Shown here: piece by piece, positions 58,409 through 64,000 of the stretch
Position numbering within the stretch: position 1 is the first letter of the stretch
Layout: each line of letters begins with the position of its first letter
NCBI RefSeq assembly: GCF_017348835.2
Contig: NZ_CP071375.1
DNA length: 64,000 nt
Origin: Escherichia coli
GTDB lineage: Bacteria > Pseudomonadota > Gammaproteobacteria > Enterobacterales > Enterobacteriaceae
Direction: 5' to 3' (one strand)
Position numbers and translations under genes: made by a program
The notes under the pieces: model-generated
What the model was told of the DNA's origin: nothing
The model's input: the letters and a program-made list of their open reading frames with translations, nothing else
Database searches by the model: none

Positions 58409-61084
58409 TTAAGCGGATTTTTTCGCTTTTTTCTCAGCTTTAGCCGGAGCGGCTTCTTTTTTCGCTGCAGTTTCACCTTCTACATAATCACGACCGTAGT
58501 AGGTATCCAGCAGAATCTGTTTCAGCTCGGAGATCAGCGGGTAACGCGGGTTAGCGCCGGTGCACTGGTCATCGAATGCATCTTCAGACAGTTTATCCAC
58601 GTTCGCCAGGAAGTCTGCTTCCTGAACGCCAGCTTCACGGATAGATTTCGGAATACCCAGTTCAGCCTTCAGCGTTTCCAGCCATGCCAGCAGTTTCTCG
58701 ATCTTAGCAGCAGTACGGTCGCCCGGTGCGCTCAGACCCAGGTGGTCGGCAATTTCAGCATAACGACGGCGAGCCTGCGGACGGTCATACTGGCTGAATG
58801 CAGTCTGCTTGGTCGGGTTGTCGTTCGCATTGTAGCGAATAACGTTACAAATCAGCAGGGCGTTTGCCAGACCGTGCGGAATATGGAACTGGGAACCCAG
58901 TTTGTGCGCCATTGAGTGACATACACCCAGGAAGGCGTTCGCAAACGCGATACCCGCGATAGTCGCTGCACTGTGAACACGTTCACGCGCTACCGGATTT
59001 TTAGACCCTTCGTGGTAGGACGCTGGCAGATATTCTTTCAGCAGTTTCAGTGCCTGCAGAGCCTGACCATCAGAGAACTCAGATGCCAGTACAGAAACAT
59101 AAGCTTCCATGGCGTGAGTTACTGCGTCCAGACCACCGAAAGCACACAGGGACTTCGGCATGTCCATAACCAGGTTGGCGTCGACAATCGCCATATCCGG
59201 GGTCAGTGCATAGTCCGCCAGCGGGTATTTCTGACCAGTAGCGTCGTCAGTTACAACCGCAAACGGAGTGACTTCAGAACCTGTACCAGAAGTGGTGGTG
59301 ACAGCGATCATTTTCGCTTTCACGCCCATTTTCGGGAACTTGTAGATACGTTTACGGATATCCATAAAGCGCAGCGCCAGCTCTTCGAAGTGAGTTTCCG
59401 GATGTTCGTACATAACCCACATGATCTTCGCGGCGTCCATCGGGGAACCACCACCCAGCGCGATAATCACGTCTGGTTTGAAGGAGTTTGCCAGTTCTGC
59501 ACCTTTACGAACGATGCTCAGGGTCGGGTCCGCTTCTACTTCGAAGAAGACTTCAGTTTCAACGCCTGCTGCTTTCAGTACGGAAGTGATCTGATCAGCA
59601 TAACCATTGTTGAACAGGAAGCGGTCAGTCACGATGAGCGCACGTTTGTGGCCATCAGTAATCACTTCATCCAGCGCGATTGGCAGGGAGCCACGGCGGA
59701 AGTAGATAGATTTCGGAAGTTTGTGCCACAACATGTTTTCAGCTCGCTTAGCAACGGTTTTCTTGTTGATCAGGTGTTTCGGACCAACGTTTTCAGAGAT
59801 GGAGTTACCACCCCAGGAACCACAACCCAGAGTCAGGGAAGGTGCGAGTTTGAAGTTATACAGGTCACCGATACCACCCTGAGAAGCCGGGGTGTTAATC
59901 AGGATACGAGCCGTTTTCATTTTCTGACCGAAGTAAGAAACGCGAGCCGGTTGGTTATCCTGGTCAGTGTACAGGCAAGAGGTATGACCGATACCACCCA
60001 TAGCAACCAGTTTCTCTGCTTTTTCTACCGCGTCTTCGAAATCTTTAGCGCGGTACATTGCCAGAGTCGGGGACAGTTTTTCATGTGCGAACGGTTCGCT
60101 TTCATCAACAACGGTCACTTCACCGATCAGAATCTTGGTGTTTTCTGGTACAGAGAAGCCTGCCAGTTCAGCAATTTTATAGGCTGGCTGACCAACGATA
60201 GCCGCGTTCAGCGCACCGTTTTTCAGGATAACGTCCTGAACAGCTTTCAGCTCTTTACCCTGCAACAGATAGCCGCCGTGGGTTGCGAAACGTTCACGTA
60301 CTGCGTCATAAACAGAGTCAACAACAACAACGGACTGTTCAGAAGCACAGATTACGCCGTTGTCGAAGGTTTTGGACATCAGTACAGATGCAACTGCACG
60401 TTTGATATCAGCAGTTTCATCAATAACAACTGGAGTGTTACCCGCGCCTACACCGATAGCTGGTTTACCGGAGCTGTATGCGGCTTTAACCATGCCCGGA
60501 CCACCAGTCGCGAGGATCAGGTTGATGTCTGGGTGGTGCATCAGTGCGTTAGAAAGTTCAACAGAAGGTTGATCGATCCAGCCGATCAGATCTTTCGGAG
60601 CACCGGCAGCGATAGCAGCCTGCAGAACGATATCAGCCGCTTTGTTGGTGGCATCTTTTGCACGCGGGTGCGGGGAGAAGATAATGGCGTTACGGGTCTT
60701 CAGACTGATCAGCGATTTGAAGATAGCAGTTGAAGTCGGGTTAGTGGTCGGAACGATACCGCAAATAATACCGATTGGTTCAGCGATAGTGATGGTACCA
60801 AAAGTGTCGTCTTCAGACAGAACACCACAGGTTTTTTCATCTTTATAGGCGTTGTAGATATATTCAGAAGCAAAGTGGTTTTTGATCACTTTATCTTCGA
60901 CGATACCCATGCCGGATTCGGCAACGGCCATTTTCGCGAGTGGGATTCGAGCATCTGCAGCAGCCAGAGCGGCGGCGCGGAAGATTTTGTCTACTTGCTC
61001 TTGAGTGAAACTGGCATATTCACGCTGGGCTTTTTTTACACGCTCTACGAGTGCGTTAAGTTCAGCGACATTAGTAACAGCCAT
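58409..61084 (-). CDS. adhE: bifunctional acetaldehyde-CoA/alcohol dehydrogenase
   Basis: 891 aa [42 protein letters not shown]...; matches AdhE. Confidence 0.97.
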
Positions 61085-61560
61085 AATGCTCTCCTGATAA
61101 TGTTAAACTTTTTTAGTAAATCATCTGCTCGAATACGAGAGTATAGTCAGTGCGATGATGATTTGCTTAACCGATGAAAATCAAAAGCTTACTCGCGCTC
61201 ACACTCACTGTGATTTACTAAAAGAGTTTAAACATTAGAGTTATTATCTCTAATGCGTCACTTCCAGGTGGCGTAAGCAAGATTACTCACTTCTGGGTAC
61301 TGATTGCGTGATCCAAATCAAATTTTTGCAAAGCTGACACCTTTCAGCATCGCTTTTCGCCATTATAGCTAACAGTTAATAAATTGTAGTATGATTTGGT
61401 GGCTACATTAGCATGTTTTGCACAACTAGATAACAATAACGAATGATAGCAATTTTAAGTAGTTAGGAGGTGAAAAATGCTGTCAAAAGGCGTATTGTCA
61501 GCGCGTCTTTTCAACCTTATTTATGGCTAACATTATCCGGCTTTTGCTTCGGAGCTAACC

Positions 61561-62208
61561 GTGATTCAGACCCTTTTTGATTTTCCCGTTTACTTCAAAT
61601 TTTTCATCGGGTTATTTGCGCTGGTCAACCCGGTAGGGATTATTCCCGTCTTTATCAGCATGACCAGTTATCAGACAGCGGCAGCGCGAAACAAAACTAA
61701 CCTTACAGCCAACCTGTCTGTGGCCATTATCTTGTGGATCTCGCTTTTTCTCGGCGACACGATTCTACAACTTTTTGGTATATCAATTGATTCGTTCCGT
61801 ATCGCCGGGGGCATCCTGGTGGTGACGATAGCGATGTCGATGATCAGCGGCAAGCTTGGAGAGGATAAACAGAACAAGCAAGAAAAATCAGAAACCGCGG
61901 TACGTGAAAGCATTGGTGTGGTGCCACTGGCGTTGCCGTTGATGGCGGGGCCAGGGGCGATCAGTTCTACCATCGTCTGGGGTACGCGTTATCACAGCAT
62001 TAGCTATCTGTTTGGTTTCTTTGTGGCTATTGCATTGTTCGCTTTATGTTGTTGGGGATTGTTCCGCATGGCACCGTGGCTGGTACGGGTTTTACGCCAG
62101 ACCGGCATCAACGTGATTACGCGTATTATGGGGCTATTGTTGATGGCACTGGGGATTGAATTTATCGTTACTGGTATTAAGGGGATTTTCCCCGGCCTGC
62201 TTAATTAA
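61561..62208 (+). CDS. ychE: MarC-family inner-membrane protein
   Basis: 215 aa; GTG start; matches YchE. Confidence 0.9.
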   Translation: MIQTLFDFPVYFKFFIGLFALVNPVGIIPVFISMTSYQTAAARNKTNLTANLSVAIILWISLFLGDTILQLFGISIDSFRIAGGILVVTIAMSMISGKLGEDKQNKQEKSETAVRESIGVVPLALPLMAGPGAISSTIVWGTRYHSISYLFGFFVAIALFALCCWGLFRMAPWLVRVLRQTGINVITRIMGLLLMALGIEFIVTGIKGIFPGLLN

Positions 62209-62221
62209 TTCCTTTCAAATG

Positions 62222-62252
62222 AAACGGAGCTGCCATGCTCCGTTTACTTTGT
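62222..62252 (+). terminator. rho-independent terminator after ychE
   Basis: aaacggagc-tgccat-gctccgttt followed by T-rich tract. Confidence 0.65.
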
Positions 62253-62945
62253 CATTATTTTTACTTTGTTCCTGCGCAGTTATCAAAAGCAAAAGGAATA
62301 GGTAAAAATATTCTTCTCAAATTACAGTTAGTTATAAGGATTTCCTTAACTGCTTCTCTTCACCATCATGTTAATTTCGCCACATCATAATCCTGGGCTT
62401 GCTGAAGAATAATTGAAATGATATTAGTAATTCCACTGCCTTTGGTAGAGGAAAGTGCTAAATAATAATCAATTGTTAAATTATTGTGCATTTCACTACC
62501 GGAACTGTAATCAGAAAAGATAGACATGCTTAACCAATCTCTATTTGATTGAATTGAAAGATGTTTGTTAAGACATGGATGCAAGCTATAGATTCTGATA
62601 CGGTCAATAAAAGAGAATTGCTTAACAATTTTGCAAAATGTATTGGCGAGTAAGAAGCGCATTTGGTACTTTCCGGGCAACCGCCAGGCGATTCTTTATT
62701 GGTAATGAGAATAATTAACAATTAAAGAGCGTCGCGAAAGAATAATGTGTCTCGACAGGGGAGACACAGTACGAATCGACATAAGGTGATCGTCTGAATC
62801 ACCAGAATAAATAAAGTCGGTGATAGCAATCCGTAACGATAAAGTAACCTGACAGCAGAAAGTCTCCGAGCCTGTGCAGGGTCCCATTCCGGGATTACAC
62901 ATGCTGGTTAATACCAGTAATTATAATGAGGGAGTCCAAAAAACA

Positions 62946-64000
62946 ATGACCAACATCACCAAGAGAAGTTTAGTAGCAGCTGGCGTTCTGGCTGCGCTAA
63001 TGGCAGGGAATGTAGCGCTGGCAGCTGATGTACCCGCAGGCGTCACACTGGCGGAAAAACAAACGCTGGTACGTAACAATGGTTCAGAAGTTCAGTCATT
63101 AGATCCGCACAAAATTGAAGGTGTTCCGGAGTCTAATATCAGCCGAGACCTGTTTGAAGGCTTACTGGTCAGCGATCTTGACGGCCATCCGGCACCTGGC
63201 GTCGCTGAATCCTGGGATAATAAAGACGCGAAAGTCTGGACCTTCCATTTGCGTAAAGATGCGAAATGGTCTGATGGCACGCCAGTCACAGCACAAGACT
63301 TTGTGTATAGCTGGCAACGTTCTGTTGATCCGAACACTGCTTCTCCGTATGCCAGTTATCTGCAATATGGGCATATCGCCGGTATTGATGAAATTCTTGA
63401 AGGGAAAAAACCGATTACCGATCTCGGCGTGAAAGCTATTGATGATCACACATTAGAAGTCACCTTAAGTGAACCTGTTCCGTACTTCTATAAATTACTT
63501 GTTCACCCATCAACTTCACCGGTGCCAAAAGCCGCTATCGAGAAATTCGGCGAAAAATGGACCCAGCCTGGTAATATCGTCACCAACGGTGCCTATACCT
63601 TAAAAGATTGGGTCGTAAACGAACGAATCGTTCTTGAACGCAGCCCGACCTACTGGAACAACGCGAAAACCGTTATTAACCAGGTAACCTATTTGCCTAT
63701 TGCTTCTGAAGTTACCGATGTCAACCGCTACCGTAGTGGTGAAATCGACATGACGTATAACAATATGCCGATCGAATTGTTCCAGAAGCTGAAAAAAGAG
63801 ATCCCGGACGAAGTTCACGTTGATCCATACCTGTGCACTTACTATTACGAAATTAACAACCAGAAACCGCCATTCAACGATGTGCGTGTGCGTACCGCAC
63901 TGAAACTAGGTATGGACCGCGATATCATTGTTAATAAAGTGAAAGCGCAGGGCGACATGCCCGCCTATGGTTACACTCCACCGTATACTGATGGCGCAAA
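62946..64000 (+). CDS. oppA: oligopeptide ABC transporter periplasmic binding protein (5' part; continues beyond window)
   Basis: Manual translation from ATG 62946 MTNITKRSLVAAGVLAALMAGNVALAADVPAGVTLAEKQTLVRNNGSEVQSLDPHKIEGVPESN... matches OppA; no stop within window. Confidence 0.95.
   Translation, partial: MTNITKRSLVAAGVLAALMAGNVALAADVPAGVTLAEKQTLVRNNGSEVQSLDPHKIEGVPESNISRDLFEGLLVSDLDGHPAPGVAESWDNKDAKVWTFHLRKDAKWSDGTPVTAQDFVYSWQRSVDPNTASPYASYLQYGHIAGIDEILEGKKPITDLGVKAIDDHTLEVTLSEPVPYFYKLLVHPSTSPVPKAAIEKFGEKWTQPGNIVTNGAYTLKDWVVNERIVLERSPTYWNNAKTVINQVTYLPIASEVTDVNRYRSGEIDMTYNNMPIELFQKLKKEIPDEVHVDPYLCTYYYEINNQKPPFNDVRVRTALKLGMDRDIIVNKVKAQGDMPAYGYTPPYTDGA

Follow-up and report, generated by a model that had tools for sequence, protein, structure and literature searches.

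Does the AT-rich DNA between ychE and oppA of Escherichia coli encode a small protein on the strand opposite to oppA? The question is raised by a minus-strand open reading frame (ORF) that had been reported, from sequence inspection, in a 64,000-nucleotide stretch of E. coli DNA (hereafter the window; all positions are counted from its first nucleotide). The list of ORFs in the window contains exactly this frame at 62366-62680: it encodes 104 aa, starts with TTG and ends with TGA. An in-frame ATG at 62662 yields a 98-aa version. The original prediction held the frame to be most likely non-coding, and our analysis bears this judgment out, as the frame is unconserved, carries nonsense alleles and lacks a coding pattern of substitutions. 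We consider it very probable that the 104-codon frame is a fortuitous ORF in the AT-rich cis-regulatory DNA of oppABCDF, the function of which is exerted on the other strand.

The ORF lies inside the 737-bp spacer between ychE and oppA (Table 1). Over 62150-63000, identity to almost every one of 5,426 complete E. coli genomes was 95-99%. For comparison across genera, we collected 80 loci from about 30 Enterobacteriaceae genera with YchE as the anchor; 78 spacers entered the alignment, and all cross-genus counts given below refer to 71 genomes of other genera. The spacer measured 664-878 bp in every Enterobacteriaceae genus sampled. The region had been called unusually long; it is indeed long, but E. 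coli is not alone in this, and the long spacer is therefore ancestral rather than the product of an insertion in E. coli. The part of the spacer that precedes the palindrome listed in Table 1 (62209-62368) was poorly conserved between genera. Just 5' of ychE, both the K-12 annotation (b4771) and PGAP have a 17-codon ORF, ychT (MLSKGVLSARLFNLIYG), which presumably serves ychE as a leader or small protein.

Table 1. Features of the ychE-oppA region, in window coordinates. Values for conserved islands are from the alignment of 78 spacers unless stated otherwise.
Feature	Position	Strand	Details
adhE	58409-61084	-	
ychT	61477-61530	+	
ychE	61561-62208	+	stop at 62208
Terminator-like hairpin	62222-62245	+	just past the ychE stop; from the consensus scan only
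ORF under study	62366-62680	-	
Palindrome TGTTA-N6-CCACA (TCACA in most genera)	62369-62384		centre about -58.5 from P1; CRP/FNR-family-like
Conserved island, P1 -66 to -7	62369-62428		0.65-0.92 by 20-nt bin
oppA P1 core promoter	62399-62427	+	-35 TTGCTG (62399-62404), 17-bp spacer, extended -10 TGaTATTAG (62419-62427)
IS2 insertion	62427		K-12 W3110
oppA P1 transcription start	A62435	+	three concordant anchors from PMC9988348
oppA 5' leader from P1	62435-62945	+	511 nt
Conserved island, P1 +15 to +54	62449-62488	+	GTGCTAAATAATAATCAATTGTTAAATT...; identity to E. coli 0.79-0.84 across 71 other-genus genomes
IS5 insertion	62458-62461		MG1655 reference; CTAA duplicated
ISSen4 insertion	about 62592-62598		NCTC122
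oppA P2 promoter region	62609-62672	+	conserved upstream block 62609-62642; -35 TTGGCG (62643-62648); extended -10 TGgTACTTT (62664-62672)
Conserved island, P2 -71 to -8	62609-62672		about 0.9 (0.88-0.91), falling to about 0.6 after 62648
oppA P2 start	62679-62680	+	Kim et al. 2012, 62679; Carrier et al. +246, 62680
RNase E processing site	62775	+	+341 of the leader
MicF pairing site	62806-62827	+	AATAAATAAAGTCGGTGATAGC; complementary to the MicF 5' end per oligo EM2982; conservation 0.91
Conserved island, MicF site	62806-62827		0.91
Conserved island, oppA translation initiation region			conserved block
oppA	ATG at 62946	+	

The base composition of the ORF agrees with the AT-richness that had been noted. 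GC content ranged from 31 to 37% across the ORF region and was 33% in the ORF overall, and GC at third codon positions was 32%; the 32 long ORFs of the window averaged 54% at these positions, with a minimum of 45%. The codon-adaptation score of the ORF (0.64) was at the low end of the range of the window genes, yet inside it. The further description of the frame as low-complexity did not hold: residue entropy was 3.99 bits, as compared with 3.95 +/- 0.13 bits for 98-aa segments of real proteins encoded in the window. We then asked how readily such a frame arises by chance. When the spacer was shuffled 2000 times with its dinucleotides preserved, 2.9% of the shuffles contained an ORF of 104 aa or more; so did 22% of 76 orthologous ychE-oppA spacers, where it occupied other frames, strands or positions. 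The length of the frame by itself therefore does not argue for a gene.

The frame has nevertheless entered the databases. In strain PE164, which is 100% identical to the window over 62150-63000, PGAP annotates the 98-aa version as a hypothetical protein (WP_072169490.1), and the same version carries the identifiers WP_001211521.1 and WP_001211524.1 elsewhere in RefSeq E. coli. In other RefSeq E. coli genomes, PGAP calls only a 53-aa piece (WP_000051910.1) or nothing at all. The call was made in about two thirds of a spread sample of E. coli genomes, and not consistently: two loci with an intact frame had no call, and one intact locus had the 53-aa call only. The curated reference of K-12 MG1655 has no gene at this position, even though it includes ychT, a small gene of the ribosome-profiling era. 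The ORF had been described as unassigned, which is correct for the MG1655 reference but not for the many RefSeq E. coli genomes that carry a hypothetical-protein call. A 98-aa copy with 92% identity is labelled Enterobacter hormaechei and resides on a 4.8-Mb contig. A genuine E. hormaechei locus is without such a frame, and the record with the copy probably stems from an E. coli assembly that was mislabelled or contaminated.

Conservation of the frame in related genomes had been proposed as the check on its coding status, and the outcome spoke against a gene. The frame was intact in none of the 71 genomes of other Enterobacteriaceae genera and in none of six other Escherichia loci. Escherichia sp. 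MOD1-EC7003, E. whittamii and three divergent loci all had stops, and most of them also had frameshifts. In no more than 9-10 of the 71 other-genus genomes was the length of the orthologous segment divisible by three. Within E. coli sensu stricto, the frame was intact in 9 of 11 sequences examined, and nonsense alleles were found in O157:H7 (S42*) and in strain AVS0744 (W49*). The 11 E. coli sequences had 13 polymorphic sites, distributed 4/5/4 over the three codon positions; five of these polymorphisms were synonymous and eight were non-synonymous, including the two nonsense changes. Between genera, identity by codon position was 0.608/0.593/0.610 in the ORF, that is, without codon periodicity. 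The corresponding values from the same genomes were 0.844/0.959/0.461 for ychE and 0.838/0.917/0.506 for oppA.

Searches at the protein level covered 5.8 billion clustered proteins (word-indexed) and 1.84 billion representatives (exhaustive), and returned only variants of the Escherichia/Shigella type and truncations of them (39 clusters; 22 representatives). No match to the ORF product was found in Pfam and NCBIfam at E<=10. Matches in tblastn reached E~1e-17 in Citrobacter and others (80 loci), but were rejected as protein conservation, because the matches were split between frames, contained stops, fell on the promoter blocks and showed no codon periodicity. What tblastn picks up in other genera is these conserved promoter blocks in translation. 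As for signals of expression, a weak Shine-Dalgarno-like GGAAAG is located 6 nt upstream of ATG 62662, and a consensus scan of the minus strand upstream of the ORF detected no promoter-like site; scans of this type prove nothing in either direction. The same kind of scan identified a hairpin at 62768-62746 that is terminator-like on the minus strand, directly before the start of the ORF. On the plus strand, this hairpin (TGTGTCTC-GACAGGG-GAGACACA, 62746-62768) corresponds to P1 +312 to +334, just 5' of the RNase E site (+341), and its conservation is moderate (0.67). The long oppA leader also contains GcvB target sites.

What the ORF overlaps is the control region of oppA with its P1 and P2 promoters and long leader, which is already known and is not a new gene. 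Primer extension confirmed two oppA starts, P1 (+1) and P2 (+246), the former being stronger, and the leader was reported to be processed by RNase E at +341 and to pair with MicF at +372 to +393 (Carrier, Lalaouna and Masse 2023, PMC9988348). We placed these positions in the window by means of the published oligonucleotides. EM4528, which served for the T7 template of the '+341' RNA, begins at ATCGACATAAGG, corresponding to 62775 and thus to a +1 at 62435. The reverse oligo of the P1 promoter fusion, EM5064, ends at 62435. The complement of the MicF 5' end, at 62806-62827, is exactly +372 to +393. Independently, a genome-wide dataset of start sites has an oppA start with a 267-nt 5' UTR at NC_000913.2 1298939 (+), and the promoter sequence was listed upstream of it (Kim et al. 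2012, PMC3415461); this start maps to 62679. At P2, the elements are TTGGCG-18-TACTTT with TGg before the -10. The sigma-70 elements of both promoters were nearly invariant across the 78 genomes and had the correct spacing to each start, and in the 5' half of the spacer, conservation per 20-nt bin peaked at the P1 core (0.92). The region had been expected to hold the oppA promoter and 5' leader, and the mapped P1 (62435) and P2 (62679/62680) are indeed both inside the footprint of the ORF.

The ychE-oppA spacer is listed as bound by H-NS and as having an oppABCDF promoter (Shimada et al. 2014, PMC3946193). For FNR, Myers et al. 2013 reported a ChIP-seq peak with its centre at 1298775, or about 62515 in the window, and they classed oppA as Fur-repressed. 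In addition, a passage of PMC9825163 that cites Ribo-RET data describes an out-of-frame alternative ORF of seven codons starting inside the 5' end of oppA.

We then analyzed how conservation is distributed under the ORF. In the 78-spacer alignment, it took the form of discrete islands that coincide with promoter elements (Table 1). Between them, in the middle of the ORF (62489-62608, about 120 bp), identity was about 30%, which is the random level. The palindrome at 62369-62384 was nearly invariant in the 78 sequences, and it is here, on the 5' side, that conservation between genera sets in abruptly. Judged by its sequence, it resembles a site of the CRP/FNR family; the match to the motif has two mismatches and is not significant alone, given 29 such matches in the window and 26.6 expected. 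In the block at 62449-62488, it appears to be the primary sequence that is conserved, and an operator or some other DNA-level element is the probable explanation. TGTTAA/TTAACA motifs occur both in this block and in the one at 62609-62642 (P2 -71 to -38), and the two blocks may be operator sites. The blocks have the look of DNA-level, primary-sequence elements because RNAalifold yielded an empty consensus structure for P1 +1 to +266, both for the whole stretch and for the blocks. A hairpin at about +21 to +56, formed in E. coli only, was discarded, as the other genera gave it no support in RNAalifold. The invariant blocks upstream of P1, at P1 +15 to +54 and upstream of P2 could guide work on oppA transcription.

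Insertion sequences have entered the same segment. Three independent insertion points lie within 62427-62598 (about 170 bp), and each of them interrupts the ORF. The two K-12 insertions, IS2 and IS5, separate or destroy P1. A contiguous match to the segment was absent in about 87 of 5,423 genomes, which suggests more IS events here.

The original prediction had also allowed for a small gene or sRNA in the spacer. No conserved small ORF was found on either strand of the spacer, and no conserved RNA structure was found; the only RNAs on record from the region appear to be plus-strand derivatives of the oppA leader itself. A plus-strand upstream ORF in the leader (62561-62653, 30 aa) was dismissed, as none of the 71 other-genus genomes had its start codon conserved. 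A permissive Rfam scan of 61000-64000 gave a single match, to the plant mir-399 model (E=0.61; 19 bits against a gathering threshold of 57), which we regard as chance. In Salmonella, the oppA 5' UTR gives rise to a MicF sponge, OppX-L, -M and -S (Matera et al. 2022, as described in PMC9988348). The window has the orthologous, conserved leader and MicF pairing site, with 0.91 identity across genera for the latter; by contrast with Salmonella, no stable leader fragment was detected in E. coli by Carrier et al. (PMC9988348), and the scanned stretch is without a credible Rfam match. Should the 3' end of OppX-L be located shortly after the MicF site, this 410-nt RNA could reach back to P1 and would then span the ORF in antisense. 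Papers citing Raghavan, Groisman and Ochman 2011 mention an Hfq-dependent 'ychE-oppA' RNA of E. coli without an intrinsic terminator. This candidate comes from the same intergenic region, the Hfq-dependence and the lack of a terminator reported for it would fit a fragment of the oppA leader, and it involves no claim of coding.

Three other readings of the frame have to be weighed against a fortuitous ORF. It could be a young gene, born de novo in E. coli sensu stricto, antisense to the oppA leader and translated from ATG 62662. Its intactness in 9 of 11 E. coli sequences, its annotation by PGAP, the weak Shine-Dalgarno-like GGAAAG before the ATG and a length reached in just 2.9% of shuffles would all fit such a gene. 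We nevertheless hold this to be very unlikely: E. coli itself has segregating nonsense alleles, its closest sister lineages have the frame broken up, the polymorphic sites show no preference for a codon position and most of them are non-synonymous, and IS insertions are tolerated. In addition, the scan found no minus-strand promoter upstream but a terminator-like hairpin in front of the frame, the PGAP calls contradict one another (98 aa, 53 aa or none), and equally long ORFs occur elsewhere in 22% of the orthologous spacers. Were it true, a gene translated at a low level and polymorphic for presence would offer a snapshot of de novo gene birth inside conserved regulatory DNA.

AT-rich DNA bound by H-NS carries spurious promoters, and we counted this in favour of a non-coding antisense RNA, transcribed from the minus strand (for example, from an H-NS-silenced promoter) and modulating the leader or promoter of oppA P1, to which the ORF would be incidental. 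The spacer is H-NS-bound (PMC3946193), and a sigma-70-like match, TGCACA-17-TATTAT, is present inside the ORF at 62490 to 62462 on the minus strand; promoter-like matches were, however, not in excess of those in shuffles (4 versus 2.6 +/- 1.6). With no credible Rfam match and no conserved structure, with a minus-strand start here unreported in the accessible literature, and with conservation fully accounted for by plus-strand promoter elements, we see very little chance that such an RNA explains the locus. The frame might finally be the decayed remnant of an AT-rich gene that the E. coli lineage acquired horizontally, by insertion between ychE and oppA. This idea is refuted by the near-equal length of the spacer (664-878 bp) and the alignable blocks in every genus sampled, which mean that nothing was inserted; nor did the frame have a homologue elsewhere among the 1.84 billion representatives. 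The low GC content (31-37%), the binding of the spacer by H-NS and the restriction of the ORF to E. coli/Shigella could point to foreign origin; even so, the probability of this reading is close to nil.

A fortuitous ORF in oppABCDF control DNA thus remains by far the best explanation, and we infer that no protein is made from the frame. The ORF runs antisense to the palindrome upstream of P1, the P1 core and start, the leader from +1 to about +246 (of 511 nt) and the P2 promoter, and its first codon coincides with the P2 start (62679/62680). On this explanation, the conservation under the ORF would reflect selection on promoter and operator DNA and on elements of the leader, not on a protein, and the hypothetical-protein calls of PGAP would be ab initio over-predictions. 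Spurious ab initio calls in AT-rich, H-NS-bound DNA are likewise lineage-restricted, devoid of domains, homologues and a coding pattern of substitutions, and annotated inconsistently even among near-identical genomes. Unlike typical calls of this kind, the present ORF overlaps strongly conserved promoter blocks, which can mimic protein conservation in tblastn. The biological weight of the result is small, as the oppA control region has already been characterised. It matters for annotation hygiene: a hypothetical protein is called inconsistently in thousands of RefSeq E. coli genomes and is better not propagated.

Finally, we compared the window with the K-12 region in which oppA P1, P2 and the long 5' UTR were described (Igarashi et al. 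1997; PMC9988348). It is the same locus, and one SNP is all that separates the published primers from the window sequence. The differences are not substantial: the window strain departs from K-12 in the P1 -10 element and in the absence of the K-12 IS insertions. At 62427, the site of this G/T SNP, the window strain has TATTAG, as do other genera, and K-12 has TATTAT (seen in EM5064 and in a K-12 locus), which is nearer to the consensus. This SNP may alter the strength of P1 between strains.
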